DNA from: Oscillospiraceae bacterium
Lineage (GTDB): Bacteria; Bacillota; Clostridia; Monoglobales; WRAG01
Direction: 5' to 3'
Assembly (NCBI GenBank): GCA_009780345.1
Contig: WRAG01000005.1
Span: 2,377 to 66,376 of the forward strand
DNA: 64,000 bases
Shown here: in pieces, positions 20,296-38,273 of the stretch
How positions within the stretch are numbered: the stretch's first letter is position 1
How the letters are laid out: each line of letters begins with the position of its first letter
Translations under genes and position numbers: made by a program
The notes under the pieces: model-generated
The model's database searches: none
Told to the model about the DNA's origin: nothing
The model's input: only the letters and a program-made list of their open reading frames with translations

Positions 20296-20324
20296 AATAA
20301 TTCCGCCTTTCAAATTATACTGGT

Positions 20325-22132: not shown

Positions 22133-22180
22133 TAAAAAAAGGTATGCGGCAACACACTTAAATATAAGATGTTGCCGCAT
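22133..22180 (-). terminator. Rho-independent terminator
   Basis: On the minus strand, ATGCGGCAAC-N17-GTTGCCGCAT is followed by a T-run (CCTTTTTTTAC). Confidence 0.5.
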
Positions 22181-22392
22181 CGAAGTGTAGATATAAAAGC
22201 GAGGGAGAAAGCAAGGGGTTGCGAAAGGAGAATCGCAACAAATAACCCTCAAAAATCACACTTCCATGAAAAAGTTTTTAATTGGCTATAGAGCTCCATA
22301 ACTAAATTTGAAAAAAGGAATCCTATAGCCGACTATAGTCCAAATCTTATCACCAAATTCGCGGTTTAGGACTTGGAAGAAAATAAGCAAAA

Positions 22393-22449
22393 TTAAAGTT
22401 GCAGCACCAACATTCCATAAATAATCCGTGCCGCTTGCGCACGTGTTGC
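22393..22449 (-). pseudogene. Orphan 3' remnant of an SLH-protein gene
   Basis: Encodes ATRAQAARIIYGMLVLQL-stop. The DNA is about 36/43 identical to the last codons of the 550-aa cohesin-SLH gene at 23150-23205 (NATRAQAARIIYGMLAL-stop). Confidence 0.5.
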
Positions 22450-22451
22450 AT

Positions 22452-23003
22452 TTAGTTTTCTATCGGCATTTCAACGTTACCACGCAACACCGCGCCCTCC
22501 TGCATATTAATACTTTTCGTTATAATATTTCCGTCCACAAAAGCTCCGGATTTTAATGTTACGGTCTTTGAAATCTTCATATCGCCTTTGATTTCGCCGT
22601 TAAATTCTAAAGATTGACTATCAATATTACCGTTAATTATAGACATCTCACTTACTTGGACACCACCAATACAGTTAAGATGTCCGTCTATTGTACCTTT
22701 ATTTACATGTATTGATTTTGCTTGAATATTTCCCTCAACTTTTCCGGTAATGGTAATATTATTTTCGCTTACAACGTTACCTCTGACAAATCCGTCAATC
22801 AACAAATTCGCCTTGGTGGAAATCGAGCCTTCAATAATAGTATCTTTAGGTATACACGCTTCCTCTCTATTGGGGAACCGTTCGAAATCCGGCGCGAGCG
22901 TTTTGCTCGCGTTAACGTTTGATTCTATTTCATCTGACGATGAAGATAAAATTTCTTGCGACTCATATTTTTTCATCTGATGATTGCCCCTAATTTCTTT
23001 CAT
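22452..23003 (-). CDS. Bactofilin-family (polymer-forming cytoskeletal) protein
   Basis: The beta-helical bactofilin pattern is present (IIEGSISTKANLLIDGFVRGNVVSENNITITGKVEGNIQAKSIHVNKGTIDGHL..GNIDSQSLEFNGEIKGDM..VDGNIITKSINMQEGAVLRGNV). GGGGG lies upstream of the ATG at 23003. The longer track ORF has no RBS. Confidence 0.7.
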   Translation of the reverse strand: MKEIRGNHQMKKYESQEILSSSSDEIESNVNASKTLAPDFERFPNREEACIPKDTIIEGSISTKANLLIDGFVRGNVVSENNITITGKVEGNIQAKSIHVNKGTIDGHLNCIGGVQVSEMSIINGNIDSQSLEFNGEIKGDMKISKTVTLKSGAFVDGNIITKSINMQEGAVLRGNVEMPIEN

Positions 23004-23149
23004 CTCATAACCCCCAAAAAACATTTTCGTCTTGGTTTTAAATCGAATCCACGCGCTGTCGCTCATTAAATCGTCAAAATAATTGTGTTCCACCGCCGTC
23101 TTCAAATTTATCAACCCTTCCTTAGTGTTATTAGAGCAAACATCCACTT

Positions 23150-24757
23150 TTATAACGCCAACATTCCGTAGATAATCCTTGCGGCTTGCGCGCGGGTCGC
23201 GTTGTCAAGCGGTCGGAAAGTTCCGTCCTCAAAGCCGTTTATAATCCCCGCCTGTTGCATTACTGAAACCGCGTCAGCCGCCCAAAATGCAATATCGTCA
23301 TTATCAATAAATTCTTGCGGCGCGTTTGTTTGTGGCAAGCTGTCAATTGCTCTTTGTACCATAACCGCCATTTCTTGACGAGTGATATTGTTGCCCGTTC
23401 CAAAAGTTCCATCGTAATGCCCTAAGATAATTCCCGCGTTTACCGCGCTCGCAACCGACGTGAACGCCCAATGCGAAGTTGCTAAATCAGGGAAGCTTGC
23501 TGTTGCGGTTTCATCGTAAATTCCGAGCGCAAGAACCAACATTCTTGCGAATTGTTCACGGGTGACGTTGTAATCGGGCGCAAAATGTGTTGCGCTGATT
23601 CCATTCAAAATTCCGCGTTCAACAAGCGACATGATATAGTCATACGCCCAATGTGACGGCGGAAGGTCAGCAAAGTCTGTGCGCTGTTCTCCGTTCGGTT
23701 CCTGCCATTCACTATCAATCGGAACGCCGTCAATGGTAACGCTTCTTTCGGTTGCGGAAATTGTTACAATAACAAATTGTGATGTTGGCGTTGCTCTTGC
23801 CAAAATTTCTTGATGGTTAAATGAAACATTTCCTAAGTCGGTGAAAAACGTAGTGTCAAACACCCAATTCGCAAGTGCATTCGCTATTGTAGAAACACTC
23901 ATTCGAAATTCAAAGTTGTCTGCATTTGCGTCAACTCGAATTCTCATAACGTTGTCTGTTTCCGCTTCTGCGCGCGCAAACGCGTTTTCAAGTTGTCTGT
24001 CGTTCAGCGTGTAATTTACCGCGCCATTAACAACAGGAGGTCGAATTGTAAGAGTGTATAAATTCGGAACATTTGTTCCTGTTTCACTATCTATTGGCGG
24101 TCGAGTGCCGGGGTTTACATCTTCACCCACTACAGTTATAGCCGGCACATTCGCTTGCAAAACCATAAACTGCGCGTCGCCATAAACATAACTGAACCCA
24201 TCTGGCGAAGTCAAATCGTAAGCGTTATCGCCTTCCACCGCAAACCGTATATCCGCGTTTCCTGCGGCAATTGCAACAAACCGTATTGTTAAAAGAGTTT
24301 CGTACACTATCGCTCGCTCATGGCTGTTGAATAAAAACAGTCTGTAAAACCCATTTTCGTTATCTAAGCGAGGAAACTGCGGATTGCTGAAAATTGCGCC
24401 GTTCCAATATAAGGGGTTCCAGTCGTCGTCAAAAGCATCTTCATCCACCGCTTGTCCGGGGATAATTCCAGCTAAACCGCCGCGCACCTCTGCTAGTGTT
24501 TTCAACCCGCTTGGCAAAATTCTGCCATCAACGTCTGCAACCCTTACCACGTCAGGGTTAAAGTGAATAGGCAAAGTCATAGATACAGCCGAAATATTTC
24601 TAACTGAAATAGTGGCTTCGATTATATCACCGGTAGTTGCGGTTGTTGTGTTAAAAGTTATATTAACTTCCCCGTTTGTTGCAAATACAGGGATTGTTGC
24701 TGCAAGTAATGTTGTCAGCATTGCAATTGTTATTACTATTGATATTATTTTCTTCAT
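23150..24757 (-). CDS. Cell-wall-anchored protein with an N-terminal cohesin-like module and three C-terminal SLH domains (anchoring-scaffoldin-like)
   Basis: TGGAGG is the RBS and a signal peptide is present (KKIISIVITIAMLTTLLAATIPVFA). The cohesin-like pattern is GEVNITFNTTTATTGDIIEATISVRNISAVSMTLPIHFNPDVVRV...LLTIRFVAIAAGNADIRF. The SLH motifs are FADLPPSHWAYDYI..., FPDLATSHWAF... and ...GFEDGTFRPLDNATRAQAARIIYGML. Confidence 0.7.
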   Translation of the reverse strand: MKKIISIVITIAMLTTLLAATIPVFATNGEVNITFNTTTATTGDIIEATISVRNISAVSMTLPIHFNPDVVRVADVDGRILPSGLKTLAEVRGGLAGIIPGQAVDEDAFDDDWNPLYWNGAIFSNPQFPRLDNENGFYRLFLFNSHERAIVYETLLTIRFVAIAAGNADIRFAVEGDNAYDLTSPDGFSYVYGDAQFMVLQANVPAITVVGEDVNPGTRPPIDSETGTNVPNLYTLTIRPPVVNGAVNYTLNDRQLENAFARAEAETDNVMRIRVDANADNFEFRMSVSTIANALANWVFDTTFFTDLGNVSFNHQEILARATPTSQFVIVTISATERSVTIDGVPIDSEWQEPNGEQRTDFADLPPSHWAYDYIMSLVERGILNGISATHFAPDYNVTREQFARMLVLALGIYDETATASFPDLATSHWAFTSVASAVNAGIILGHYDGTFGTGNNITRQEMAVMVQRAIDSLPQTNAPQEFIDNDDIAFWAADAVSVMQQAGIINGFEDGTFRPLDNATRAQAARIIYGMLAL

Positions 24758-24786
24758 TTTAAAGCCTCCATTTTCTAATTTCCATT

Positions 24787-26964
24787 TCAATTCGGCAACC
24801 ATAGTTGCTCGCCAAAGTCAACATCCTCGCCCGGTCCCAACCAACGTTTAAGCATGCTATAAGTTTCAGGATATCTTCGCTCAAATGCGTTTGAAACGGT
24901 TGCTTCCTGCACGTTGTAAAATCCCCAATGTCCACGCGGCAAGTCAGGCCAATCAACAATCATTTCCTCTAAAATTCCGTAATGGTCTAAATAGCGGTCA
25001 AGCACACGATTGATAAGCGTCATTGCCTCAACCCTTGTTATAGATTGGTCCGGACGGAATGTTCCGTCGGGATAACCGACAATCCAACCACGTTGTGCCG
25101 CCGAGGCGATATATCTTTCACCCCAATGTCCTGATACATCATGAAAATCATGCGCCGCATTAGGGTCTAAATTTTCAAACCTCATTGCGATTGCCGCAAA
25201 TTCCGCGCGGGTTATATTGGCTGCGGGATCAAAAGTGCCGTCAGGACGACCTTGTATAGTTCCTGCGTTTTGTTTTGTAGAAATTTGCTGATTCGACCAT
25301 CTATACGCGTCAACATCGGCAAATGTGTTCGAGAATGCGCGGAATCTGTTTCGGGAATCATCTTCCAAAAGTCGGAAAAATATTGTCGCGACTTCCTCAC
25401 GTGTAATCGGATTATCAGGGCGCATTGTACCGTCCTCAAATCCAAAAATAAATCTGAAATGGTCATCTCTTGCAAGTTGAGGACCATCATCATCCGGTAG
25501 TGGTGGTAGTGGCGGTAAAATAATGACTGGTGGAGGACGAATGGGGTCTCGAATAATCGGATCCCGATTATCATTACCGCCTGCGGCCGTAAATGTCCAA
25601 GTTCCCACAAACATAACGTTTGCGCTCGGCATTGTAAAAGTGCCGCCGATAATTGTTACGTTTACCGGAATCGGAGCCCAGCCGTTAAATGTCCAAGTTC
25701 CTCTAACTCCGTTGTGAGTATTTGAAGTTGTCGTTAAATTGCTTGCCACAGTTACGGTAGCGCCCGCCAAAAATTGCGCCGACGCCGGAATTGCAGAATG
25801 GTTCGGCGGCCTGATTCCCGTTACTGTATAATGCACCTCGAAAATAGCCTGTCCCGGATCCGGAGTAAAAGTCCAGGTTCCTGCAAACACAACATCGCTG
25901 TCCGGCATTATAAATTCACCATCTGTAACCATTACATCATTGGTCCCCCAACCGTTAAATGTCCAAGTTCCTGTAATGCCGTTATGTGTGGTTTCGGTAG
26001 TTGTTAAATCATCAGCTACAGTCAACTCATCACCGGGTGATTGCGGCGAGTTCGGCGGAATTGGATATGGCGCAAAAGTCGAAGGCGCAATTCCTGTAAC
26101 CATATAACGCACTTCAATACGACGCCATTGCGCCGTAAGATAAAAATCTTCATCTATATCAGGTATAACATCGCCGGGTTGATGTATAGCTCCGTCGCGG
26201 CTATCTTCCCAACCGTCAAATGTATATCCCGGGTTGCGATTAAATTCATTTTCCGGCACAGTAAAATCTTCACCGTCAGGCACTTTCGTAGGCGGCATTA
26301 ATGTCGGATCTTCATCCGTTCCATTGTCGCCGGGTCTAAAAGTGATTGTATGCTGCCTTTGGCGAATTTCAAAAGGGTGCACACTCCAAATCGGGAATAT
26401 CGGCATAAAAGCATCTACGGTGCCCCAGCTTTCGTTATCAATCAGAACAACTCCTGTAGGAACAGGCGCAGTCGGATTAAACGCCTCAAATCCAAATCCG
26501 GTACTGGCGCTACCTAATATCCATCCCGATGCCACAGCTTCGTATGTAAGTGTGGCAAGTAAAGTCGGCTCAAAATCTAAGGTAATCCCGCCGCCCACTT
26601 CGTGCGGATACGCCAAAAGCATAATGTTTGTAGTTCCCGGAATATATTGCGGATTATCTATATGCTCAAATCCGGGGGCAGCAACAACAGATTCTAATGT
26701 CGCACGAATCGGATCGTCAAGCACAGGCAAAGTGATATTTACAATATTTCTCACATTTTTTATCCAAATTTCAACTATAAAAATTTCGCCTATATAACAA
26801 TAATCCTGCAAATTGCCATCTACACGCGTTACAAAAAATACCGTTGGAGTGTCGTTCTGCATTTCTTCCGAATTATCTGCCGTGGCTAATGGCAAAGTAA
26901 CCCCTGTCAATAGAATGGACATAACAAACAATATTGATAAAAGTTTTAATCTTGTTTTGTGCAT
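24787..26964 (-). CDS. Cell-wall-anchored multidomain protein with a cohesin-like module, a Listeria-Bacteroides repeat, two SHIRT-like repeats, a Pro-rich linker and three SLH domains
   Basis: The N-terminus reads ...YIGEIFIVEIWIKNVRNIVNITLPV. The Listeria-Bacteroides-type repeat is ITFRPGDNGTDE..GYTFDGWED...LTAQWR. The two SHIRT-like repeats have the form V.Y.VTGI.P.......P....GD..TVA..LTT...THNG..GTWTFNGW......MP...V.F.GTWTF. The SLH motifs are FIFGFEDGTMRPDNPITREEVATIFFRLL, FADVDAYRW..GRPDGTFDPAANITRAEFAAIAMRF and FHDVSGHWGERYI..GYPDGTFRPDQSITRVEAMTLINRVL. Confidence 0.7.
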   Translation of the reverse strand: MHKTRLKLLSILFVMSILLTGVTLPLATADNSEEMQNDTPTVFFVTRVDGNLQDYCYIGEIFIVEIWIKNVRNIVNITLPVLDDPIRATLESVVAAPGFEHIDNPQYIPGTTNIMLLAYPHEVGGGITLDFEPTLLATLTYEAVASGWILGSASTGFGFEAFNPTAPVPTGVVLIDNESWGTVDAFMPIFPIWSVHPFEIRQRQHTITFRPGDNGTDEDPTLMPPTKVPDGEDFTVPENEFNRNPGYTFDGWEDSRDGAIHQPGDVIPDIDEDFYLTAQWRRIEVRYMVTGIAPSTFAPYPIPPNSPQSPGDELTVADDLTTTETTHNGITGTWTFNGWGTNDVMVTDGEFIMPDSDVVFAGTWTFTPDPGQAIFEVHYTVTGIRPPNHSAIPASAQFLAGATVTVASNLTTTSNTHNGVRGTWTFNGWAPIPVNVTIIGGTFTMPSANVMFVGTWTFTAAGGNDNRDPIIRDPIRPPPVIILPPLPPLPDDDGPQLARDDHFRFIFGFEDGTMRPDNPITREEVATIFFRLLEDDSRNRFRAFSNTFADVDAYRWSNQQISTKQNAGTIQGRPDGTFDPAANITRAEFAAIAMRFENLDPNAAHDFHDVSGHWGERYIASAAQRGWIVGYPDGTFRPDQSITRVEAMTLINRVLDRYLDHYGILEEMIVDWPDLPRGHWGFYNVQEATVSNAFERRYPETYSMLKRWLGPGEDVDFGEQLWLPN

Positions 26965-26985
26965 TTAGCTTATACCTTCTTTCAA

Positions 26986-28002
26986 CTAATTATAAACTAC
27001 TGCTTTTCTGAGAAAAATACTTGGCACATAAGGCGCCATCGTATTCGCATTCCAAATAAATATTTTTATATATTCAACCCCCAAAGCGGAGGGCTTGTAT
27101 TCAAAGTTAATCTCATCTCTCGTTTGAGTGTATATTACACGGCGGCGCACTGTGCTTTCAAGAAGTCTGCCTTTTTCGTCATAAGCCGCCACAATCACCA
27201 TAACATCCATATCATAATCCTGAATATTTCTAATTGTTGTCAGTATTGTCAGATACTTGTCAAGTTGTAAAATCCCGTCTGCGGGTATTCCGTCATAGTA
27301 AAGATCTATCGTTATATTTTCCAATGTATTAAATGTCGGCATAATACCGTTATATCTGTTGTTTCTAAGGAATGTGTCGCTGTTAATAGGTCCATGATGC
27401 ACAAACCAAAAACTGCCGCGCGCAAATATTGCCCAGTCATACCACTCTTGCGGATTATTTTTGCCATATCCATCACTTCTGCAAGTTAGCCGAATATCCG
27501 GATTCCCTGCGGCAATGGCTACCATATATACCGAATACACAAGTTGTCTATCTGTTAAATTACGAGGTTGATTATTGAAAGTGGTAAACGTCATTCCAAG
27601 TAATCCGGTTCGGTTATTCAAAAATGGATGAGGCCCAACCGGAACATGTACTCCACGCCATAACCCATATGGATTGCCTATTGCGTTGCCTGTTCTAAAA
27701 AAATTAGGCGCTTGATTTCCAAATCCTGTCGGAAGAATATCTCCATCACGATTAGACACTTGCGCTATTTCCGCATTAAAATGCAATGATGGCGAAACCC
27801 ATAATAAATCATCAAAATTTGAAAGGTATACATTCACCCTAAAAACTTCGCCAATATGTGCAGTTGTTATTTCGTTGCCTTCTAAATCTGTGATTACAAT
27901 TTCTATTGTTTCAATGTTGCTTTGCGCAAAAACAGGCAATAAACTAATGATGCTTATCAATATTGATATTGTAATAAAAATATTAAATATTCGTTTTAGC
28001 AT
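26986..28002 (-). CDS. Secreted protein with one cohesin-like module and a C-terminal beta-rich domain
   Basis: GAGGTG lies upstream of the ATG at 28002 and a signal peptide is present. IEIVITDLEGNEITTAHIGEVFRVNVYLSNFDDLLWVSPSLHFNAEIAQV...VYSVYMVAIAAGNPDIRL is paralogous to the N-terminal module of the 550-aa protein. Confidence 0.6.
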   Translation of the reverse strand: MLKRIFNIFITISILISIISLLPVFAQSNIETIEIVITDLEGNEITTAHIGEVFRVNVYLSNFDDLLWVSPSLHFNAEIAQVSNRDGDILPTGFGNQAPNFFRTGNAIGNPYGLWRGVHVPVGPHPFLNNRTGLLGMTFTTFNNQPRNLTDRQLVYSVYMVAIAAGNPDIRLTCRSDGYGKNNPQEWYDWAIFARGSFWFVHHGPINSDTFLRNNRYNGIMPTFNTLENITIDLYYDGIPADGILQLDKYLTILTTIRNIQDYDMDVMVIVAAYDEKGRLLESTVRRRVIYTQTRDEINFEYKPSALGVEYIKIFIWNANTMAPYVPSIFLRKAVVYN

Positions 28003-28087
28003 CCTTTTGCTTTCACCTCGTTTAATATTATTCAAGCAATATATTGGGGCGAGCGAACTCGCCCCAATATATTAAAGTTAAGTACGA

Positions 28088-30457
28088 TTAGTCAATTTCG
28101 ATTTCAATTGTTTCCATACCTAATATACTTGCTCTAACTGCCGCAAGGTCAGCGCCGTCGATACCATTAACTTCATTGATATCCATAACTGCTGTGCCGC
28201 CAACTCCTGCCAAACCTACAGCACCTCTAATTGCTTGGTAATCTGTAATAAGAGTTGCATTCGCTCCGGCAAACGCTCCCGGGAACAACCAGAATACGTC
28301 GGTAGTCGGTTGAAAGTAATTACCTGATGAAAGCGTAACTTCTCCATCAGCATCAGCGGCTACAATAAGTCTCACTTGAAGATCACGATATGCCTCATCA
28401 CGAGTTCCGCCGTCTCTTCTTGCCATACGGATGTAGAATGTTGTATCTACATCAATTTCAGGAAGTGAAAGTTCGAAATTACCGTCGTTATCAGTATAAA
28501 CTGCCGCTACCGTTGCAATCGGAGTTCTTGCATCAAACGCTGCTGCGTTCGCATAAAGTGTAACTCTGATATCTGCGTCAACGTCAGCTCTTACGCCGGC
28601 GCCGCCTGCTACTGTACGCAATTTGTGCGCCAAACGAATTGTTCCAACTACTGTAACATTCAGAGGGAAAGTAATTTCTTCATCTGTGATTCTTATCAAA
28701 ATTTCGTCATACGGACGATATCCGTCTTGGTTTGGCCACAGATCAGTTGTGCCCCAAACAAATTGAGTCGGGTTATCATTAACCGATGTCGCTCTTACCA
28801 AAATGTCGCCTTCCCAATCAGCGTCAACCATTGAAAATACTCCTGTGTTAGGATCGATTACCGCGATATTTCCAGGTACAGGGTCGCCGTTAGGCAATCT
28901 TATGCTCCAAACAACCTCTTGGTCTACCGGTCTTGAAAGAATTTCAGGGTTTCTTCCCGGAGGGCAATCCCAAAGTACAACATGAGCGAAAGTTACATCT
29001 TCGTCTCTGTCAACCGGAATTGTCGGTGTAGAACCTGTGATTTCAACGATTCTATACGGATCCCAAACTTCTTCAGTAGTGATGATGATTTCATCCCACG
29101 GACGATCAGGATTTGTTAATCTGTCAGCACCGAAGTTATTGTTGTACTCAGCATACACACGTACAAGAACTGAACCTTCAAATCCTTCCGGAAGAACTAA
29201 CTGACCTTGTGCATTGAAATGCGGAGAAGCTGTAGCTGTAGAACCATCTCCCGGTGTGTAGTTCACAACTATCCACTCGTAGTGATTGTCAGGAATCGGC
29301 GCACAATCATCATAGTTCACAAACGTTACTTCATAAGTGAAATCAATATATGTGTTTCCTGTTGTGTTCATAGTAACCGGTGTTCCACCAGTCGGAGTCA
29401 AAATAGTGATTTCCGCAATATCTACAAACTCAGTAGGAACTTGAACCAATCCTGCTACCGAGAAACGCTCTCTGCCGCCAAACGCGTCAGGCGCACCCGC
29501 CGCAAAAGCGAATTCTATCAAATCAGATGTGTCCCAACCTGTTGCCGTTGCATGGTATACAGTTGGCACTACCGGACTTAAAACAACTCTCCAAAAAGCT
29601 GTCGGATTTGCTGTTGTTCCGCCTATGCTTGCAATATCGGCACCCGCTTCAGCTACAGCCGCCCATAAATCAACGCGACCACCGACTATACCTGAACCGG
29701 GAAGCTGAACGAATGCTGCCGGCCCCATCCACTCAAAGCGAACAATTTCAACATAATCAAGGTCAAACTCAAGTCCAACATTTAAGTTGTGAATATCAGC
29801 CAAATCATGCGCTGACACGATTAGGGAGAATTCTTCGCCTACCAATACATTTGCAGGCGTATCCGCCGCCGGTCTGATGAATACATGACCGTCGCCGCCG
29901 GGACCGGGGCCCGGCTCATCATCTTCAACCGTTACAGTTGCATTAGATGTAGAACCCGGCATGCCCGGAAGAACCATTGTGCCTGGATTCATCGGCATCC
30001 ACCAATCACCTAAAAATCCATCAAGGTGTGCATAAGTAATATTTAAATTAATATCTTGGCTGGCATCTTCCACTCTCAAAACCATAGTTCCGATCATTCC
30101 GCCAATTCCACCTTCATAAATACCTGCTACTGAACCTCCAACACGAACTCCATTAAGTCCTGCCGGAGTTGACGCACCTATTCCAACGTGCGCAAAAGCC
30201 GGGGCACCAAAACTTGCACTTACAAACGACAATGCGCCTGCCGGCCAATTAAGGTCGAACTGATAAGCAGAAAGCACTCCTCCATCTGCAAAGTTAAAAC
30301 TGAATTCAACAGTGAACTCGTCTCCAACTTCAAAGTCAGAACCAATTACATTTACAACCAACTCAACGCGACCATCTGTCGCAAACGCAGGAACTGCAAA
30401 CATTCCTAAAACCATTGCTATTGCCAATATCATTGACAATACTTTGCTTAACTTCAT
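28088..30457 (-). CDS. Secreted adaptor-like protein with two cohesin-like modules, Ig-like domains, a CarboxypepD_reg-like domain and a dockerin-like C-terminus
   Basis: AAGGAG is the RBS and a signal peptide is present (KVLSMILAIAMVLGMFAVPAFA). The cohesin-like segments are GRVELVVNVIGSDFEVGDEFTVEFSFNF..LSAYQFDLNWP and VFIRPAADTPANVLVGEEFSLIVSAHDLADIHNLNVGLEFDLDYVEI. The last ~190 aa are collinear with the C-terminus of the 2183-aa protein and end in MDINEVNGIDGADLAAVRASI. Confidence 0.7.
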   Translation of the reverse strand: MKLSKVLSMILAIAMVLGMFAVPAFATDGRVELVVNVIGSDFEVGDEFTVEFSFNFADGGVLSAYQFDLNWPAGALSFVSASFGAPAFAHVGIGASTPAGLNGVRVGGSVAGIYEGGIGGMIGTMVLRVEDASQDINLNITYAHLDGFLGDWWMPMNPGTMVLPGMPGSTSNATVTVEDDEPGPGPGGDGHVFIRPAADTPANVLVGEEFSLIVSAHDLADIHNLNVGLEFDLDYVEIVRFEWMGPAAFVQLPGSGIVGGRVDLWAAVAEAGADIASIGGTTANPTAFWRVVLSPVVPTVYHATATGWDTSDLIEFAFAAGAPDAFGGRERFSVAGLVQVPTEFVDIAEITILTPTGGTPVTMNTTGNTYIDFTYEVTFVNYDDCAPIPDNHYEWIVVNYTPGDGSTATASPHFNAQGQLVLPEGFEGSVLVRVYAEYNNNFGADRLTNPDRPWDEIIITTEEVWDPYRIVEITGSTPTIPVDRDEDVTFAHVVLWDCPPGRNPEILSRPVDQEVVWSIRLPNGDPVPGNIAVIDPNTGVFSMVDADWEGDILVRATSVNDNPTQFVWGTTDLWPNQDGYRPYDEILIRITDEEITFPLNVTVVGTIRLAHKLRTVAGGAGVRADVDADIRVTLYANAAAFDARTPIATVAAVYTDNDGNFELSLPEIDVDTTFYIRMARRDGGTRDEAYRDLQVRLIVAADADGEVTLSSGNYFQPTTDVFWLFPGAFAGANATLITDYQAIRGAVGLAGVGGTAVMDINEVNGIDGADLAAVRASILGMETIEIEID

Positions 30458-30501
30458 ATCCTTTTCTCCTTTTTAATATGTAATTTTTAATTATGTTACT
30501 G

Positions 30502-33321
30502 TTATAAAACGCTATCGTTCGCTATATTCAATATCGGAAGTAGGTTCCTCGGATGTCCCGTGTTTACATATTGGAAAATAACACTCGGAAGCGCTACATT
30601 CGATATGTTTGCTACAAACGGTCCAACCGCAAATACTGCCGCTGAAACTCTACCAATTGGCTGTATGCCTGCAACCGACAACGCGCCTGTTTGTAATGCA
30701 AGCGCCTGAGACGGCGCTGCAAACCCCGGCAATGCATTACCGCCCATTGGATTTCCGTATATTACTACCGTATTCGCAGTAACTTCTCCGCCGATTGGCG
30801 CAAAATAGAAATCAGTAACAGCCATAGGTACATCCGAATTGTTGCGCAATACTGCAAACACCCAATTCGTCTCATTCGAACGCTCCGACGAGAAGAATAT
30901 ATAAACGCCCGCAAGATTGCTTCTTAACGCAAACTCTGTTGTCAAGTTCGGGAACGCTTCTCGCGATACTAAAACAGTTCCCAAAACGCCGATGTTTCCG
31001 ATTCCGTCTTGACGATAGCGGAACTGACCTTGTATCGGCTCTGTCGGTCCGTCTGCGCCTACTGTAACAGTCGCAGTGCCAACTACTCCACTACCATCTG
31101 CCGCAGTCGCTGTAATTGTAACAGTTCCTGCCGCAACGCCTGTAACAACACCTGTTTCAGCGTTTACCGTTGCAATCGCCGCATCGCTTGACGTCCAAAC
31201 AACTGCTCGATTTCGAGCATTTTCCGGCAATACTGTCGCTGTTAACGTACGAGTTGCGTCAATTTCAACCGCGCCCGCATTTCCAACAGCAATCGATGCC
31301 ACACGAATCGCATGAACCACGATAATCCACTCCGGATATTCGCAATCACACGGGTCGTCGCATACGCAAGTGTCGCAAACTATACATCTCACGCACCAAG
31401 TATAACCGTCCGGCAACGGAAGAAGTCCTTCAGGCAAGTCGCCTTCCGGCCATGTCCAGTCGCCCGGCGGAACAATCACGATACAATCGCAATCGTAATC
31501 ACAACCGCAATCGCCTTCATCGCCTTGTCCCCACGGATAACCCGGAATATTGATAACCGTTTCTTCCGACGTCGTAACAACCAACGAACCGCTCGCAGCA
31601 GTCGTCACATGCGTCGCTTCGTTAATCGCAGCGAATCGTGCGCGAACCACATACGTCGTTTCAGCAGTCAAACCGCTGAAAATACGCGATGTTACCCAAT
31701 CGCTAATCGGCGTAACGCCGTCAGCAGCATATAATCTGAACTCTGTTCTCCAACCTGCTTCCGCAGTAATCGCATTCACCGCGAACGATGTCGTTCTAAG
31801 CGAACCCGCAGTCATAACAGGCGCAGCCGGCGCATTTGTCGTCAACAACGGCGGAATTTCTGACGTTCTCACGTTCAAAGTCGCTTCAGGGCTCATTGCA
31901 TGCGTTGCCGCGTTAATCGGCGCGAATCGTGCGCGAACAACATACGCAGTATCCGCAGTCAAGCCTGTAAAAGCAGTTCCCACAGCCCAATCGCGAATCA
32001 CAGTTGAGCCGTCTGCCGCAAACAACGCATATTGCGTCGTCCAACCGCCTGGCGCAGTAATCGCGTTTACGCTGAACGAAGTTTGCGCCAACGTGCTCGG
32101 CGCAACCGCCAAACCTGTCGGAGCTTCCGTCGTTTCAAGCGGCGGTAAACGATATCCGCCCGCATCCAAATTCACGTAAATGCGGCGATACGCATGATCC
32201 CATCCGCCCAAAGTCGACGGCATAAATCCTGTCGCAACCAAGTGATAACCCGACCCAACTTGGTCGCCTGTGCGCGTTACAACAACTTCGTCGCCGTCAA
32301 GCGCAACAGCCCAATCTGGTTGTGCCGAAACCATGCCTGTTTCAACCCATCTTGTTTCGCCGCCGAAAGTCATTGCTTGCGGCAATCTTACCGTGTCGTT
32401 CGCGATCATACCTGTCCACGGCACTTCGCGCTCGATAACAATCGCGTCGCCTGTCGGTTCAGCTGTCTCCATCCAACCTACAGTAAAGAAAGCGTCAAAC
32501 GTCATCGGATTTCCTGTTGAATTATTAATTACAAACGTATGGTCATACGTTCCAACACGCAATCCTTGACGCGGTCTGATTGTAAACTCACGAGCTTGGT
32601 TGTGCGGCAACGGCGTTCCCGTCCAATACGGAGGCAATACGATTTCCCACGCCGGATGTGGCGGCAACGGTGACAAAGTCACAGGTGCGCCTGTTGTGTT
32701 TCTTACACTAACCGTCGCAGACTGACCGATTACGTAGTCCGGTGTACGCCATCCGAATGTAATCGCGTTACTCCTTGCACCCGCCCACGTCAAGGTCGAG
32801 GTTCGGCGAGACTGATTTGTGTTCCCCACGTTCGAGCGCGATAAAACGTACATGTGCCCGGTTGTCCCCCCGCTTTGCCTTACGATCCACCCTTGTCGAG
32901 TATGAGGGACTTGTGAAAACAAATTTATCGGGTGTGGGATACCCCACCCGGTGTCCCCAATCTCAGGAAAGGTGGCCGCATCCCCCCAGCCTGTGTTAGC
33001 GCCGACATTCGACCAACCATTGATAGATCCTCCCGGGGCTAGTGGGGGACTCTTCCTGTGTCTAGCGACGAAAATCCGATCCCCTCCTAACCAGGTGCCA
33101 CCCATACCGAGAATGTGGTAGCCATTGCCCGCGGGAACCACGTCATTGCCTATTTGTCCCGACCGGCTTAGCCTAATTAGGCTCACCGGCTCACGTCGTG
33201 TGACCGTCACGGCAAGACCCGGGGCGTTTGCTTCTGCCGGCGTCGGCGCGGCGATTAATGTCACCGTGCTAAAAACTACTGCTAGCGCTATCATAAATGA
33301 CAGCATTTTTTTAATAACCAT
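30502..33321 (-). CDS. Large secreted multidomain protein with an N-terminal domain of atypical codon usage, Ig-like domains, two tandem FN3-like repeats, a Cys/Asp-rich segment, a Big_2 domain and an unknown C-terminal domain
   Basis: A signal peptide is present (MLSFMIALAVVFSTVTLIAAPTPAEA). The ~95-aa tandem repeats are ..TSFSVNAITAPGGWTTQYALFAADGS..FTGLTADTAYVVRARFAPINAATH and ..TSFAVNAITAEAGWRTEFRLYAADGV..FSGLTAETTYVVRARFAAINEATH. The Big_2 pattern is LTATVLPENARNRAVVWTSSDAAIATVNAETGVVTGVAAGTVTITATAADGSG. Confidence 0.7.
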   Translation of the reverse strand: MVIKKMLSFMIALAVVFSTVTLIAAPTPAEANAPGLAVTVTRREPVSLIRLSRSGQIGNDVVPAGNGYHILGMGGTWLGGDRIFVARHRKSPPLAPGGSINGWSNVGANTGWGDAATFPEIGDTGWGIPHPINLFSQVPHTRQGWIVRQSGGTTGHMYVLSRSNVGNTNQSRRTSTLTWAGARSNAITFGWRTPDYVIGQSATVSVRNTTGAPVTLSPLPPHPAWEIVLPPYWTGTPLPHNQAREFTIRPRQGLRVGTYDHTFVINNSTGNPMTFDAFFTVGWMETAEPTGDAIVIEREVPWTGMIANDTVRLPQAMTFGGETRWVETGMVSAQPDWAVALDGDEVVVTRTGDQVGSGYHLVATGFMPSTLGGWDHAYRRIYVNLDAGGYRLPPLETTEAPTGLAVAPSTLAQTSFSVNAITAPGGWTTQYALFAADGSTVIRDWAVGTAFTGLTADTAYVVRARFAPINAATHAMSPEATLNVRTSEIPPLLTTNAPAAPVMTAGSLRTTSFAVNAITAEAGWRTEFRLYAADGVTPISDWVTSRIFSGLTAETTYVVRARFAAINEATHVTTAASGSLVVTTSEETVINIPGYPWGQGDEGDCGCDYDCDCIVIVPPGDWTWPEGDLPEGLLPLPDGYTWCVRCIVCDTCVCDDPCDCEYPEWIIVVHAIRVASIAVGNAGAVEIDATRTLTATVLPENARNRAVVWTSSDAAIATVNAETGVVTGVAAGTVTITATAADGSGVVGTATVTVGADGPTEPIQGQFRYRQDGIGNIGVLGTVLVSREAFPNLTTEFALRSNLAGVYIFFSSERSNETNWVFAVLRNNSDVPMAVTDFYFAPIGGEVTANTVVIYGNPMGGNALPGFAAPSQALALQTGALSVAGIQPIGRVSAAVFAVGPFVANISNVALPSVIFQYVNTGHPRNLLPILNIANDSVL

Positions 33322-33467
33322 TTTCTTTTTAATCCTCCTAATAAAAATTTTGCGTTACTCATTCTCTCTTCCAAATGATCCTTGTTCATCACACCTTTCC
33401 AAAAACACAGTTTAATTTTTATATGTAAAATTTCGTTTTTGCCATTTTTAAAAAAACATGAAATGTT

Positions 33468-33497
33468 TTGTATATTTGTTGAACTTTGTGTTATAAT
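33468..33497 (+). promoter_or_regulatory. Sigma-A promoter (P1) just outside the left inverted repeat. It currently points antisense into the recombinase gene.
   Basis: TTGTAT, an 18-nt spacer, then TGtTATAAT (extended -10). No plus-strand gene lies downstream. Confidence 0.45.
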
Positions 33498-33527
33498 GAA
33501 ATATAGGGTAAATTGTCGGCACAAATG

Positions 33528-33558
33528 TTTCACAAAATTCGCAATTTTGCGAAAAGTA
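33528..33558. repeat. Left arm of the inverted repeat flanking the recombinase cassette
   Basis: AAATTCGCAATTTTGCGAAAAGTA (33535-33558) is the exact reverse complement of 34946-34969. With the extension the match is 31/34. The core is TTCGCAA-TT-TTGCGAA. Confidence 0.8.
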
Positions 33559-33596
33559 ACGTTCAAACCATTGATAATGCTATATTTTGCGCTCCC

Positions 33597-33627
33597 GATT
33601 TGACGGCTTATTGACGGACTAAAAATT
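33597..33627. promoter_or_regulatory. Direct TTGACGG repeats (candidate arm-type recombinase binding sites), 3' side of int
   Basis: gatTTGACGGcttaTTGACGGactaaaaatt resembles gattTTGACGGtaaatTTGACGGcttaaaaatt at 34769-34801 in the same orientation. Confidence 0.4.
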
Positions 33628-33643
33628 TTCGGGAGTTTATTAA

Positions 33644-34750
33644 CTATGCCCGTTTTAAGCTCCGCATTGCTTCTTGTTTTTGCTCCATAAGCGGATGAAC
33701 ATATCTATCAAGCGTTAACTTTACCGTGGCGTGTCCTAAAATTTCGCTTAGTATCTTAACATCAATGCCGCATTCGACACATCTTGTCGCGAAGGTGTGC
33801 CGCAGATTATGAAAGTTGACATCACGCACGTTTGCCCGCCTTAATGCGGACTTAAAACGGTATTGCAACGTGCGATTATCCAAATAGCTGTTGTTTTCGC
33901 AAAGCACATACCCGTTTGATCGTCTTATGCGTCTTAGCAAATCTGATATTGCTTGCGGCATTGGAACTTGTCTTGACGAGTTTGTGCTTTTAGGCTTGTC
34001 CATGATCATCATTGTTTTATTTCCTGTTTGTTCAAATGTGGTAATACGCTGTATTGTGTGATTTATATTGATAAGATTTCTGTCGAAGTCGATATCTTCC
34101 CATCGAAGAGCGCAAACCTCGCCGATACGAAGTCCGGCGTAAAGTGAAAGCATAATTGCGGTGTGCGTATTCTCGTCAAATTCTCGCGATTTGCGTTCGA
34201 GCCGCTTTTGTTCGTCGCGGCTGAGAACTTCAACCTTTTCATATCTGACCGAAGGCGTAATAACATCGTCGCACGGATTCGACGGAATTTCTTTAAACCG
34301 CCGCGCCGCTTTCATGCAAGCCGACAAAACGCGAAATATATTTTGGATGGTTGCGGGCGAAAGCTCGGCGCGGCTTAAATCGGTGACGAAATCTTGAATC
34401 TCGAAAGACGTTATTTCTATCAATTTTATATGACTTAATCGTGGAAGAATATGTCGTTTCATGTGTCCGTGATAGCTTGAAAACGTAGATGGTTTTACGT
34501 TCGGCTTTGAGAGTTTGTAGAGCCAATGTTGCGCCCAAACGTTAAACGTATGTCCGGCAAAAACGCCGATATGACAATTTTGTTTAGCCGTTGTCGCCTT
34601 TAAAGCAATCAATGATTGTTTGACATTGCTATACTTCGATCCATATATATATTTGTAGATTGAACGTCCGTCGTCATGTTTACCGACTACGCAACGCCCC
34701 TCCCAACGGCCGTCCTTTCTTTTATAGATGTTTTCTCCTCGTCGTGCCAC
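33644..34750 (-). CDS. Tyrosine-type site-specific recombinase/integrase with an Arm (AP2-like) N-terminal DNA-binding domain
   Basis: The N-terminus is ..NIYKRKDGRWEGRCVVGKHDDGRSIYKYIYG. A SAM-like core-binding region is present. The C-terminal catalytic region reads ..LYAGLRIGEVCALRWEDID...HNLRHTFATRCVECGIDVKILSEILGHATVKLTLDRYVH. AAAGGAG lies upstream of the GTG start. Confidence 0.85.
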   Translation of the reverse strand: MARRGENIYKRKDGRWEGRCVVGKHDDGRSIYKYIYGSKYSNVKQSLIALKATTAKQNCHIGVFAGHTFNVWAQHWLYKLSKPNVKPSTFSSYHGHMKRHILPRLSHIKLIEITSFEIQDFVTDLSRAELSPATIQNIFRVLSACMKAARRFKEIPSNPCDDVITPSVRYEKVEVLSRDEQKRLERKSREFDENTHTAIMLSLYAGLRIGEVCALRWEDIDFDRNLININHTIQRITTFEQTGNKTMMIMDKPKSTNSSRQVPMPQAISDLLRRIRRSNGYVLCENNSYLDNRTLQYRFKSALRRANVRDVNFHNLRHTFATRCVECGIDVKILSEILGHATVKLTLDRYVHPLMEQKQEAMRSLKRA

Positions 34751-34768
34751 TTTATCATCTCCTTTGTT

Positions 34769-34801
34769 GATTTTGACGGTAAATTTGACGGCTTAAAAAT
34801 T
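34769..34801. promoter_or_regulatory. Direct TTGACGG repeats (candidate arm-type sites), 5' side of int
   Basis: See 33597-33627. The two TTGACGG copies are 12 bp apart and begin 19 bp upstream of the int start codon. Confidence 0.4.
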
Positions 34802-34883
34802 CACAAATTGTTGTAATTCTAGTCAAATTAATGTAATTGTTGAACATTGTAATAAAAATGATTGCTAAATGCAAATTTTTTTC

Positions 34884-34912
34884 TTGACATTGTGAATAAA
34901 ACGTGTTATACT
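34884..34912 (+). promoter_or_regulatory. Strong sigma-A promoter (P2) inside the cassette, firing outward through the right inverted repeat
   Basis: TTGACA, a 17-nt spacer, then TATACT preceded by TGt (extended -10). Confidence 0.5.
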
Positions 34913-34945
34913 TATATTCGTTTATGTGATATGGGGGTCAAAAAC

Positions 34946-34976
34946 TACTTTTCGCAAAATTGCGAATTTCACGAAA
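34946..34976. repeat. Right arm of the inverted repeat flanking the recombinase cassette
   Basis: TACTTTTCGCAAAATTGCGAATTT (34946-34969) is the reverse complement of 33535-33558. The central dinucleotide is AA here and TT on the left, so the copies are truly inverted. Confidence 0.8.
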
Positions 34977-35008
34977 AGGCAACTGCTACAATTTAATAAT
35001 GATATATC

Positions 35009-35050
35009 AAAAGGTTTTTTGGAGACTTCTTCAAAAAGCCTTTTATTTTT
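35009..35050 (+). terminator. AT-rich hairpin plus T-run about 130 nt downstream of P2
   Basis: aaaaggtttttt-N12-aaaaagcctttt followed by attttt. Confidence 0.35.
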
Positions 35051-35142
35051 GTAATTTAATCATATTAACATTATAATCTAAAAATATTTCGCAAATAATG
35101 CCCTGATTTAATCAAATTTCATTCACAAAACTACATCCCCTC

Positions 35143-35171
35143 TTGCAAAATGCTTATAAATGTGATATAAT
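35143..35171 (+). promoter_or_regulatory. Own promoter (P3) of the MalT/LuxR regulator gene
   Basis: TTGCAA, a 17-nt spacer, then TATAAT with TGa (extended -10), 48 nt upstream of the ATG at 35219. Confidence 0.45.
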
Positions 35172-35218: not shown

Positions 35219-37762
35219 ATGAACGAAAACACAACTTCTTTACCGCAATCAAACTCTCCCGAGCATATTATCCGACCAAGAATGAATGCGCTTTTGGAAA
35301 AGGCTATCGAAAAGCCTTTAGTTGTCATCGAGGCTGGCACAGGCTATGGCAAAACCCGTGCGGTTGCTGACTTTGTGCAACAATGCGATATTCCTGCTAT
35401 GTGGATGCAGCTTTCCAAGTCAGACAATGTCGGCACGCGTTTTTGGGAAAGCTTTGCCAATTTAGGTATACATGTAGGAGAAAATGTAGTAAAACAATTT
35501 TTAGAGTTCGGTTTTCCCGATACAGAAAATAGATTGAAACAGCTTTTTGAAATGAGGTTTGATTTTATAGCGAACCGGCGCTTTATCCTTGTGTTTGATG
35601 ATCTTCATCTTATAAATAACCCGGCTGTGCTTAGATTTATAGAACGGGATGCAAATGAGCTTCCGAGTAGCTGCACAATGATTATGATTTGCCGGGAGAT
35701 GCCGCAAATTAATATTGCAAACTTAGAAGTTCGAGATATGGTATATCACATAAATGAGGAAGATTTAAATTTTACTGAACGCGAATTGGATAATTATTTG
35801 CAATTGCAAGAAGTATCGCCAAAGCCGCAAACTCTGCACAAAATTTTTCAAGATACACGCGGTTGGGCTTTCTCCGTGAACCTTATCGCGCGATCACTAA
35901 AAAAATCGCCGGCATATCCGGGTTATACCCGACCGGCGATAAAACATAATATCTTTAAATTAATTGAAGCAGAAGTGTGGAGCGTGGCGTCCGAACGATT
36001 GCAACGTTTCTGGCTGTGCCTTTCATTGATTGAACATCTTTCTATAGACTTGGTCACTATGCTGGCAAACGGTGATGAAGAATTGCTGACCGAACTTCAA
36101 CAACAAAGCGCATATGTGCGTTATGACAACGAGATAGGCGCGTACTTAATCCATCATCTGTTCTTGGATTTTCTTCACACGAAGCAAGACATGCTCACTG
36201 AATATGAAAAGTGTGAGACATATAAAATTTCCGCAGACTGGTGCAAGCTAAATGACTTTAGTATTGACGCGCTGAGATATTATGAAGAAATCAAGGATTA
36301 TGAATCAATTGTATCAATTATGTGGAAACTGCTTGAGTATACATCAAGTGAAATTCCACTTTATCTCATTGGTATTTTTGAGCGCGCGCCGACGGAAGTG
36401 TTTAATAATATAAATTTTTTCGCAGCCATGCATTTACACGCTTTACTTCGTTTAAATCGCTGGAAAGACTTTTTATCAATGGCAAAAAACTATGAAAAAA
36501 GGTTTCTTGGCCTGCCTGAGGATAATGCTTTCCGAAACCATACATTAAGCCTTATATATTTTTTCTGGTGTTGGGAGCGATTTTTAATGAGCGGAGCAGA
36601 CAATAGATATGATTTTGATGTGTATTTAGAAAAAGCCGTTAGTTGCTTGGAAAAATCGCCTAAAAATTTGATTCCAACCATTATAATGCCGCTAGGGCCA
36701 TGGGCCAGCGCAGTGAGAAGCGCAAAATCAGGAGTTCCTCGCGAATTCGCAGAAGCCGCGAGCCGAATGATAAATTGTGCTTGTAATGCTTCTATTTGTT
36801 TTTGCCATATAAGGGGATTAGATGATTTGCTTTGGGGTGAGCTTAATTTCTATCAAAACAACCTTGCCGACGCAGATTCTTTTTTGCTTTCGACGATTGA
36901 GCAAGCGCGTAAGTGTGGGCAATTTGAAGCTGAGCACAGAGCACTGTTTTACACCATGCGCACAGCCGTCATGCAGGGAAATTATCAAAAAGCTAAGCAG
37001 TCGCTAAACGACATAAAAACAATGATTGATATAAGCGGTTATTCTCGCCGTTTTCTCACACATGACATTGCTCATGGATGGTATTACTATCTCTTGCGAC
37101 AACCGGAAATGATTCCGAATTGGCTTAAAGAAAATTTTACTTCATATGATCATTCGTATTTTATCGAAAATTTCTGCAATCAAATGAAGGCCCGTTATCA
37201 CTACCTAACAAGGAACTATCAACCCCTGCTCACCTATATTGATGAAATGAAACATCGCGAGTCCATATTATATGGCAGAGTGGAAATGTTGGCGATTGAA
37301 GCTTGTGTATATTACCAAATGAACGATAAAAAAGCCGCGTTTGATGCTCTGTGGAATGCTTACGAAACGGCGGCGCCAAATAATATTGTGATGCCATTTA
37401 TCGAGCTGGGGAAAGATATGCGTACTCTTACCATGGCTGCTATAAACAACACAGATTGTGCAATTCCGAAGGAGTGGTTGGAAAACATCAAACGCAAGTC
37501 AGCTCTATATGCTAAATATCAGTCAACAATTATTTCTAAATATGAAAAAGAAAACAACATGAGCGGCATAAAAGCTTTATCCGCCAGAGAAACCGAAATT
37601 CTGCGCGATATGTGCAAAGGGCTTTCGCGCCAAGAAATTGCCACCAATCAGGAAATATCCATCAGTACAGTGAAAATGAATATGAATCATATTTATGAAA
37701 AACTAAACGCAAATTCAATGGCCGATGTCATTCGTATCGCAACAGAGTATAAGTTGGTGTAG
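35219..37762 (+). CDS. MalT/LuxR-family large ATP-binding transcriptional regulator (P-loop NTPase, helical/TPR-like repeats, C-terminal LuxR HTH)
   Basis: The Walker A motif is VVIEAGTGYGKTRAV and the Walker B-like motif is ILVFDDLHL. The C-terminal HTH reads LSARETEILRDMCKGLSRQEIATNQEISISTVKMNMNHIYEKLN. AAGGAGG lies 8 nt before the ATG at 35219. Confidence 0.8.
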   Translation: MNENTTSLPQSNSPEHIIRPRMNALLEKAIEKPLVVIEAGTGYGKTRAVADFVQQCDIPAMWMQLSKSDNVGTRFWESFANLGIHVGENVVKQFLEFGFPDTENRLKQLFEMRFDFIANRRFILVFDDLHLINNPAVLRFIERDANELPSSCTMIMICREMPQINIANLEVRDMVYHINEEDLNFTERELDNYLQLQEVSPKPQTLHKIFQDTRGWAFSVNLIARSLKKSPAYPGYTRPAIKHNIFKLIEAEVWSVASERLQRFWLCLSLIEHLSIDLVTMLANGDEELLTELQQQSAYVRYDNEIGAYLIHHLFLDFLHTKQDMLTEYEKCETYKISADWCKLNDFSIDALRYYEEIKDYESIVSIMWKLLEYTSSEIPLYLIGIFERAPTEVFNNINFFAAMHLHALLRLNRWKDFLSMAKNYEKRFLGLPEDNAFRNHTLSLIYFFWCWERFLMSGADNRYDFDVYLEKAVSCLEKSPKNLIPTIIMPLGPWASAVRSAKSGVPREFAEAASRMINCACNASICFCHIRGLDDLLWGELNFYQNNLADADSFLLSTIEQARKCGQFEAEHRALFYTMRTAVMQGNYQKAKQSLNDIKTMIDISGYSRRFLTHDIAHGWYYYLLRQPEMIPNWLKENFTSYDHSYFIENFCNQMKARYHYLTRNYQPLLTYIDEMKHRESILYGRVEMLAIEACVYYQMNDKKAAFDALWNAYETAAPNNIVMPFIELGKDMRTLTMAAINNTDCAIPKEWLENIKRKSALYAKYQSTIISKYEKENNMSGIKALSARETEILRDMCKGLSRQEIATNQEISISTVKMNMNHIYEKLNANSMADVIRIATEYKLV

Positions 37763-37925: not shown

Positions 37926-38273
37926 TGGTGGAGATGACGGGAGTTGAACCCGTGTCCGAAAATACATTCCCTATTGGCGCTACGAGCGTAGTTTATTGTT
38001 TAAATTCCCCTCAATATCACACAATAAACAAAGCAATATATCAGGTAGCCTCTGGTTCATGGGAAGATCGAGACACTTCTTCCTCACGTTCACCGCTAAA
38101 TTTGACGCCCACCCTCATCCCGCGGTTCGGATAAGTTAGGACGGCTACCTAATTAGGCAGCGTAAGCTAAATTTTTGTTAGCGTTTAATTTAAGTTTGGT
38201 CGCAGATTTAGGTGTTGCCCGACACCGCTCGCTCCCCTAAGTTCAATATTCCCGTCGAAACCATTTCATCCCC
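37926..38273 (-). ncRNA. ssrA: tmRNA (SsrA)
   Basis: The minus strand starts GGGGATGAAATGGTTTCGACGGG and ends GGACACGGGTTCAACTCCCGTCATCTCCACCA, a tRNA-Ala-like acceptor/T-arm with an encoded CCA. The internal tag frame is ...GCT AAC AAA AAT TTA GCT TAC GCT GCC TAA (..ANKNLAYAA-stop). smpB lies 570 bp upstream on the same strand. Confidence 0.9.

Follow-up and report, generated by a model that had tools for sequence, protein, structure and literature searches.

A probable self-contained invertible promoter cassette, carrying its own lambda-like tyrosine integrase, beside a surface-protein operon of an Oscillospiraceae bacterium

The window analysed here is a 64,000-nucleotide (nt) stretch of DNA from an Oscillospiraceae bacterium (assembly GCA_009780345.1, contig WRAG01000005.1, positions 2,377 to 66,376 of the forward strand), and all coordinates refer to it unless another locus is named. 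Positions 33528-34976 are likely to be a working, self-contained invertible promoter cassette (inverton), in which a tyrosine integrase gene and an outward promoter, P2, lie together between two inverted recombination sites and which gates the adjacent surface-protein operon (candidate target, 13816-33321, - strand; its first gene, for a Big_2 protein of 939 amino acids [aa], starts at 33321). An earlier note on this DNA had proposed a self-contained switch with both recombinase and promoter inside; the proposal is supported by about 110 cassettes of like build and by the occurrence of both orientations among relatives. For the window cassette itself, we infer that inversion is still active and that P2 drives the operon. 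Relatives were collected by scanning metagenomes as well as one genome for each species, which gave at least 160 loci (designated by L numbers) with integrases 35-44% identical to that of the window; the window's own contig was not among the metagenome matches listed. The anatomy of the family was taken from about 110 cassettes that were not dereplicated, such that the counts below include close relatives.

The segment is bracketed by an exact 24-nt inverted repeat, as had been reported: AAATTCGCAATTTTGCGAAAAGTA is found at 33535-33558 (+ strand) and its exact reverse complement at 34946-34969 (- strand). The 64-kb window holds no third copy, even at up to three mismatches, and no match of any kind was obtained in 100 shuffled sequences (0/100); within the window, the 24-mer is thus not a dispersed operator. 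A repeat search extends the arms to 33528-33558 and 34946-34976 (31 nt, 90% identity, 1387 nt interior), and the previous figure of 31/34 for the extended match is wrong, the recount giving 28/31 or 28/34. The register of the core sites was fixed from a family-wide pattern, TTTCN-N17-NGAAA, which 77 core arms fit at N17 and four or fewer at any other spacing. Read in this way, the left core (27 base pairs [bp], 33528-33554, + strand) comprises the outer arm TTTCACAAAA (33528-33537), the spacer TTCGCAA (33538-33544) and the inner arm TTTTGCGAAA (33545-33554). The right core (27 bp, 34950-34976, - strand) is inverted with respect to the left and comprises the inner arm (34950-34959), the spacer TTGCGAA (34960-34966) and the outer arm (34967-34976); its reverse complement is TTTCGTGAAA-TTCGCAA-TTTTGCGAAA, with the same spacer as the left core, inverted. 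The 10-7-10 structure replaces an earlier division into half-sites TTCGCAA/TTGCGAA around a 2-bp centre (7-2-7), which is off-register. Since the 7-bp spacer is asymmetric, the two core sites are truly inverted and are not mere palindromic operators, as the earlier note had maintained. Each outer arm has 2/10 mismatches to the inner arm, and the two outer arms have 3/10 to one another. Partner cores share the same 7-bp spacer, inverted, in all 28 of the 28 cassettes in which both arms could be matched, as strand exchange by a tyrosine recombinase requires.

The sole substantial open reading frame (ORF) between the arms (33644-34750, - strand) encodes a three-domain tyrosine recombinase/integrase of 368 aa, with a GTG start behind the ribosome-binding site AAAGGAGA; the ORF list and Pfam agree with the earlier description of it as the only gene in the 1387-bp interior. 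Pfam matches are to Phage_integrase (PF00589, E=2.7e-28) and SAM_3. The R-K-H-R-H-Y catalytic set is complete: R208, K254, H314, R317, H340 and Y350 are all present and are invariant in an alignment of 63 sequences. Y350 falls one position away from the Tn1549 nucleophile Y379 in a pairwise alignment and is the only invariant tyrosine there. An AlphaFold model of the protein (predicted local distance difference test [pLDDT] score of 89.6) has an N-terminal three-strand sheet and helix, followed by core-binding SAM-like and catalytic domains. In the predicted N-domain (approximately residues 8-57), the strands span residues 8-10, 16-24 and 30-37 and the helix residues 40-57; the pLDDT of 10-residue blocks over residues 1-50 is 69-92, reaching 91-92 for residues 11-20 and 31-50. 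The best Foldseek matches in the PDB are Tn1549 Int (TM score 0.76 on the target) and full-length lambda Int (approximately 367 columns), and the Tn1549 and lambda integrases are the closest solved structures by sequence as well as by fold. Across the family, residues 5-22 hardly vary. By its predicted structure, the recombinase is a heterobivalent lambda/Tn1549-like integrase with an arm-binding N-domain fold. Membership of the FimB/FimE group was ruled out (it scored 25.9 bits with NCBIfam NF007370, for which the cutoff is 221, and 20.7 bits with NF007371, for which it is 222; the 368-aa, three-domain protein is also encoded inside the segment), as was a serine DNA invertase of the Hin/Gin/Cin/Pin type, all domain and structure matches being to tyrosine recombinases. 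None of the phage and plasmid integrases searched is more than 41% identical to the window recombinase.

Two pairs of short repeats flank the integrase gene, both in integrase sense (- strand). The pair CCGTCAA-N5-CCGTCAA (34773-34791) lies 22-41 nt upstream of the start codon. The pair CCGTCAA-N4-CCGTCAA (33600-33617) lies between the integrase stop codon and the left core, inside a 7-bp stem (33592-33598 / 33629-33635). On the + strand, the corresponding TTGACGG copies start at 33600 and 33611, and at 34773 and 34785. Placement and strand are strongly biased across the family: upstream of the integrase gene, 30-50 nt before the start codon, 132 CCGTCA copies are in sense and 2 in antisense, and between the integrase stop and the downstream core, 40-70 nt before that core, the numbers are 96 and 2. 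The density of the motif in these regions is 5.5-9.9 per kb, compared to approximately 0.15-0.2 per kb in the outside flanks. The motif and the N-domain are constant across the family, unlike the cores and the remainder of the protein, a pattern that fits arm-type recognition; we take the CCGTCA repeats to be candidate arm-type sites that the integrase N-domain would bind. The same role had been suggested for the TTGACGG arrays, and both the strand and position bias and the predicted arm-binding fold strongly support it. The window as a whole holds 26 copies of TTGACGG against 10.5 expected, mainly on the minus strand within coding DNA; this excess probably stems from biased codon use or peptide repeats in the surface proteins and probably has nothing to do with the four copies at the arm-type positions.

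Among the promoter matches of the region the best is P2, a predicted outward sigma-70-type promoter (TTGACA-17-TGtTATACT, 34884-34912, + strand) that matches the consensus at 11/12 positions and has an upstream TG. Its -10 element ends 33 nt from the 31-nt repeat and 37 nt from the 27-bp core. The promoter scan bears out the earlier description of P2 as a near-consensus extended -10 promoter firing rightward across the right repeat. Just outside the right core is a predicted intrinsic terminator (35009-35051, + strand), a hairpin of 16 pairs (35009-35044; approximately -15 to -17 kcal/mol) followed by the T-run ATTTTTG. In the present orientation it would end P2 transcripts after approximately 130 nt, the distance originally noted. 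No Rfam match to the P2 leader was found at an E value of 1 or better. An outward TTGACA-17-TAnnnT promoter reading through the integrase-upstream core is present in 85/110 cassettes versus 10/110 on the other strand, typically with its -10 element 29-46 nt from the repeat. At all other positions tested across the family, promoters are no more frequent than background, and only 2/106 cassettes have a fixed, target-facing promoter in the stretch from the downstream core to the next gene.

The window's subfamily has three members, the window cassette and its paralogues at L003 (74% identical) and L007 (67% identical), and each has a terminator at this position. Across the family, an energy-based terminator finder shows a real but modest enrichment on the P2 side (27/101 cassettes, versus 10/106 on the target side); a simpler finder had given 10/101, near background. 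A 'parking terminator' was rejected as a family-wide feature and is universal only in the window's subfamily. A second promoter-like site, P1 (extended -10, TTGTAT-18-TGtTATAAT, 33468-33497, + strand), is predicted outside the left core and points into the cassette. It falls under the -35 threshold of the scanner, while a separate scorer gives it 10.5. P1 had been presented as the reciprocal partner of P2: the site is there, and L003 and L007 retain part of it, but a reciprocal P1 does not hold as a feature of the family (16/106, versus 2-14 at control positions), and any role for it is speculative.

We propose the following mechanism. The integrase N-domain would bind the CCGTCA repeats that lie a short way in from either end of the segment while the core-binding and catalytic domains bind the two inverted 27-bp cores; bridging between arms and cores would assemble an intramolecular synapse, and strand exchange across the identical 7-bp spacer TTCGCAA would invert approximately 1.42 kb. 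Since the two ends do not differ in inner arm, spacer or arm sites, the reaction should be reversible. The sequenced state would be parked, or OFF: P2 would fire toward a gene for a MalT-like regulator and be stopped by the terminator. In the flipped, ON state, P2 would lie upstream of the 939-aa gene, which has no promoter-like site of its own: no minus-strand site was found between 33322 and 33527, directly upstream of the operon (best score 8). When the inverted allele was built in silico (junctions CAAATGTTTCACAAAATTCGCAATTTTGCGAAAAGTAGTTTTTGACCCCCATATCAC on the left and GCATTATCAATGGTTTGAACGTTACTTTTCGCAAAATTGCGAATTTCACGAAAAGGCAACTG on the right), P2 was placed at 33592-33620 on the - strand, 271 nt upstream of the ATG of the 939-aa gene. 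It then faces the operon in a sensible geometry, as the earlier note had predicted. The assignment of the sequenced state as OFF for the operon follows from these two positions, with the terminator past P2 now and P2 upstream of the operon after the flip.

Cassettes of this family occur in many Enterococcus species, with several per genome, as well as in Oscillospiraceae, Ruminococcus, Monoglobus, Lachnospiraceae and other Clostridia. A bracketing inverted repeat with a score of at least 17 was found at 50/72 genome loci with adequate flanks, versus 1/130 displaced-window controls, and many metagenome loci are likewise bracketed. L003, found in the same samples as the window, has a MalT-like regulator, an integrase and a giant surface protein in matching order; its own 31-nt bracketing inverted repeat differs in sequence from that of the window, with the same spacing. 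L007 has a perfect 36-nt inverted repeat, unlike that of the window in sequence and at the same spacing. With respect to gene context, both neighbouring genes point toward the cassette in none of 89 cases (0/89) and both read away from it, as in the window, in 34/89; the gene downstream of the integrase reads away in 82/102. Among the first target-side genes (n=102), 25 encode Trans_reg_C (OmpR-type winged-helix) proteins and 17 encode HTH_3 (XRE-type) proteins, and in Enterococcus regulators occur on both flanks of the cassette. Paralogues within a genome are 40-60% identical to one another, each with its own core and spacer.

Some members depart from the usual plan. The L007 cassette has a third, partial core copy inside the segment (L007:1628-1647), which might permit an alternative, shufflon-like inversion. 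Bracketing repeats are unusually long in L157 (81 nt, 3332-3412 / 4834-4914) and L024 (52 nt, 797-848 / 2514-2565), the usual length being 20-36 nt. At L010 (1310-2560; also L011 and L012), which is orthologous to L007, the integrase is kept, and both repeats and approximately 430 nt including the outward promoter are lost; the integrase sits directly behind an outside promoter, TTGACA-17-TGcTATAAT, and the locus may be a naturally locked or decayed derivative.

Natural inversion is shown for related cassettes by three sets of near-identical loci that come from different samples. L053, L056 and L057 share with L060 (human-gut contigs from different assemblies) an interior that is 99.8% identical and collinear, with the flanks swapped and reverse-complemented at approximately 99% identity over 733-800 nt. 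The interior is inverted with respect to the flanks in the same manner in L046 and L080 versus L068 and in L058 versus L079, as well as in several more distant pairs. The switch points in the inverted pairs fall inside the repeats. Three Enterococcus isolates (E. ureilyticus LMG 26676, L107; E. plantarum LMG 26214, L128; and Ca. E. moelleringii 669A, L147) each have a contig of 1612-1636 nt that consists of the cassette alone and ends at the repeats. Such contigs are expected when a culture holds both orientations, suggesting mixed orientations within the sequenced cultures. The complete Enterococcus raffinosus megaplasmids all carry the cassette in the same orientation. In E. raffinosus Er676, homology is lost approximately 220 nt before the repeat and no integrase is found in the next 5.7 kb, so that this replicon offers neither a clean empty site nor a flip.

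Several points weigh against reading 33528-34976 as an active switch of the operon. All of the direct evidence for inversion comes from relatives with integrases 35-44% identical to that of the window, and the family counts include close relatives. The window cassette itself was seen in one orientation only, the two further contigs (L001 and L002) being 100% identical re-assemblies of the same strain; in a contig look-up for the flipped form, a query with the 939-aa neighbour found none and a query with the MalT-like gene returned the same two contigs. The 74% paralogue, carried by five contigs, likewise has a single orientation in all 4 of those compared. Consensus assemblies give the majority orientation only, and a single orientation is therefore expected even for an active switch. 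Pfam has no match to the N-terminal domain of the recombinase, so that its arm-binding assignment comes from the predicted structure, and promoters and terminators were called by consensus matching only. After a flip, transcription from P2 would have to cross the core hairpin and the TTTTGTG behind it, which look weakly terminator-like. Finally, the integrase gene lacks its own terminator in the window, and also in L003 and L007; read-through into the operon is possible in the present orientation, and the ON/OFF assignment could thus be wrong or leaky.

This last point bears on an alternative in which the cassette does invert but with a different logic: P2 would toggle between the MalT-like regulator, reached by conditional read-through of the terminator, and the surface operon in a two-state manner, or the present orientation would express the operon via integrase read-through, and P1 might bias expression of the integrase. 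We consider this unlikely, despite a number of observations that agree with it. The genes on either side of the window cassette read away from it, as they do in the 34/89 family members noted above, the MalT-like neighbour is kept at the 74% paralogue, P1 is partly conserved in the subfamily, and regulators lie on both flanks in Enterococcus. However, a strong terminator separates P2 from the MalT-like gene, which has promoter-like sites of its own; integrase-sense promoters inside the cassettes are weak family-wide, and P1-like sites are near background.

It is less probable still that the cassette is a relic, locked in this lineage though relatives continue to flip. The single orientation of the window cassette and its 74% paralogue, the demonstrable loss of both repeats and the promoter region at L010 with retention of the integrase, and the mismatches of the outer arms (2/10 with the inner arm, 3/10 with one another) would be accommodated by such a history. 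Decay is not apparent in the working parts, however: the integrase ORF is intact with its full catalytic set, the spacer and inner arms match perfectly over 24 nt, P2 is near consensus and the arm-type pairs are intact. The single orientation is also what majority-orientation consensus assemblies would be expected to give.

A third alternative, that the repeats are palindromic operators or hairpin attenuators approximately 35 nt past two similar promoters and that the integrase is an unrelated mobile-element remnant (of a transfer-messenger RNA [tmRNA] island or of an insertion sequence [IS]-like element), can draw on the 16-bp near-palindrome in each repeat copy, which scores as terminator-like on the minus strand, on the promoter-like site (P1 or P2) upstream of each, on a nearby tmRNA gene (37926-38273) and on contigs ending at terminal repeats, which are also typical of IS elements, but is very improbable given that only two copies occur in 64 kb, that relatives have repeats of different sequence at the same positions with spacers always matched between partners, that interiors are found flipped between fixed flanks, that no phage or plasmid integrase is above 41% identity, and that the tmRNA 3' end has no duplicate in the window and no Rfam match was found. 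An insertion sequence or transposon was rejected as an explanation of the cassettes: a target-site duplication of at least 4 nt was seen in only 1/28, and no identical copies were found. The within-genome paralogues, with their 40-60% identity and distinct cores, are not recently transposed copies, and the possibility raised at the outset that the repeats are the ends of a multicopy transposon can be set aside. An integration/excision element between directly oriented att sites was also rejected, as the cores are inverted, the integrase gene is the only gene inside, there is no att duplicate of the tmRNA gene in the window and relatives invert. tmRNA genes are classic sites of island integration; a genomic island at the window's tmRNA gene was rejected for lack of a duplicated 3' end in the window.

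Among known systems, the closest match in layout to the proposed promoter cassette is the Salmonella Hin H-segment, an invertible segment of approximately 1 kb, with short inverted recombination sites at its ends, that holds both the recombinase gene and an outward promoter, which drives an adjacent surface-structure operon in only one of the two orientations. Hin is the cited example of a recombinase inside its invertible segment (PMC5903667), and reviews that place recombinases 'near or inside' invertible regions refer to it. The position of the recombinase, which the earlier note had considered unusual, is thus not unprecedented, while the type of enzyme and the presence of arm sites are unusual: Hin is a serine recombinase with a Fis-bound enhancer and 2-bp staggered cuts, whereas the window has a three-domain tyrosine integrase, arm-type repeats and a 7-bp spacer. 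The E. coli fimS element is similar in that a tyrosine recombinase (FimB or FimE) inverts a promoter between short inverted repeats and turns a surface operon ON or OFF, but FimB and FimE are approximately 200 aa in length, lack an arm-binding domain and are encoded outside the 314-bp segment. With the integrases of lambda, Tn916 and Tn1549, the window protein shares domain architecture, fold, the R-K-H-R-H-Y set and separate arm- and core-type sites (predicted in the window). Those enzymes integrate and excise between direct att sites with the help of directionality factors; in contrast, the cores of the cassette are inverted, only the integrase gene and promoter lie inside, there is no Xis-like ORF, and relatives invert.

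Two further groups are comparable in part. In pneumococcus, creX lies within or between the inverting repeats of the ivr locus. Type I restriction-modification hsdS epigenetic invertons, such as ivr with PsrA/CreX, have an embedded tyrosine recombinase gene (PMC7672463, PMC7096588). They shuffle hsdS coding segments, whereas the window cassette would re-aim a promoter with no rearrangement of coding sequence. The RecV switches of Clostridioides difficile (cwpV, flgB and cmrRST) are, like the window cassette, Firmicute tyrosine-recombinase invertons for surface proteins or regulators, and a terminator sets the OFF state of cwpV (PMC2784873, PMC5386303). They differ in that one RecV, encoded elsewhere, serves many switches of approximately 150-200 bp, compared to a dedicated recombinase in each cassette and several, probably orthogonal, cassettes per genome here.

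An invertible promoter switch is of a known kind; the cassette family with a tyrosine integrase and arm sites is apparently undescribed. In the literature on invertons, including the surveys, no account of such an architecture for tyrosine integrases was found, though coverage was incomplete and an earlier description is possible. One large inverton survey trained on segments of less than 300 bp only, and another treats invertases as neighbours of invertons. With a length of approximately 1.4-1.6 kb, the cassettes probably lie outside the range that the main surveys stress, in which case the surveys would have overlooked a substantial part of the phase variation of gut Firmicutes. The evidence leaves us evenly divided on a broader proposal, that these loci form one class of autonomous flip cassettes, built of integrase and promoter and widespread in Clostridia and Enterococcus, in which a lambda/Tn916-type lineage has been domesticated as an invertase, the CCGTCA arm sites impose an inversion topology, several mutually orthogonal cassettes coexist in a genome, and the usual targets are transcription factors or large surface operons.

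If the cassettes work as their structure and natural variants suggest, Firmicutes of the gut and of other host sites, many Enterococcus species included, would have a large class of phase-variation switches that has gone unnoticed, and the cassettes would offer a model of an arm-binding integrase rewired from integration/excision to reversible inversion. As many of them would gate transcription factors, a single flip could reprogram a whole regulon. In the present organism, an operon of approximately 11-20 kb for S-layer-homology (SLH) and Ig-like surface proteins would be under stochastic ON/OFF control. For synthetic biology, the many diverged pairs of integrase and core site would also be a ready source of recombinase switches that are compact, self-contained and probably orthogonal.

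Between the E. raffinosus megaplasmids L175 and L179, the upstream flank is 98.6% identical, compared to 78-81% for the cassette and downstream target region, and cassette and target together seem to diverge, or to be exchanged, at a much higher rate than the DNA around them. The target side of L179 has a helix-turn-helix (HTH) gene followed by secA2, of the accessory Sec system.

The side of the window cassette that P2 now faces carries the MalT/LuxR-family (LAL-type) regulator gene (35219-37762, + strand), whose own promoter-like sites are at 35143-35171. Directly after it is the tmRNA gene (37926-38273, - strand; tag ANKNLAYAA), with smpB nearby. On the other side, the products of the minus-strand operon are, in order, the 939-aa Big_2 protein, proteins of 789 aa and 349 aa, a 725-aa SLH/SHIRT protein, a 550-aa SLH protein and a bactofilin (22452-23147, - strand). 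Past the bactofilin gene, a 547-nt gap is followed in the same minus-strand gene array by the gene for a 526-aa protein with five XRE-type HTH domains (20325-21905, - strand) and then by that for a 2183-aa protein. The five-HTH protein and the bactofilin are unusual companions of SLH and Big_2 surface proteins.

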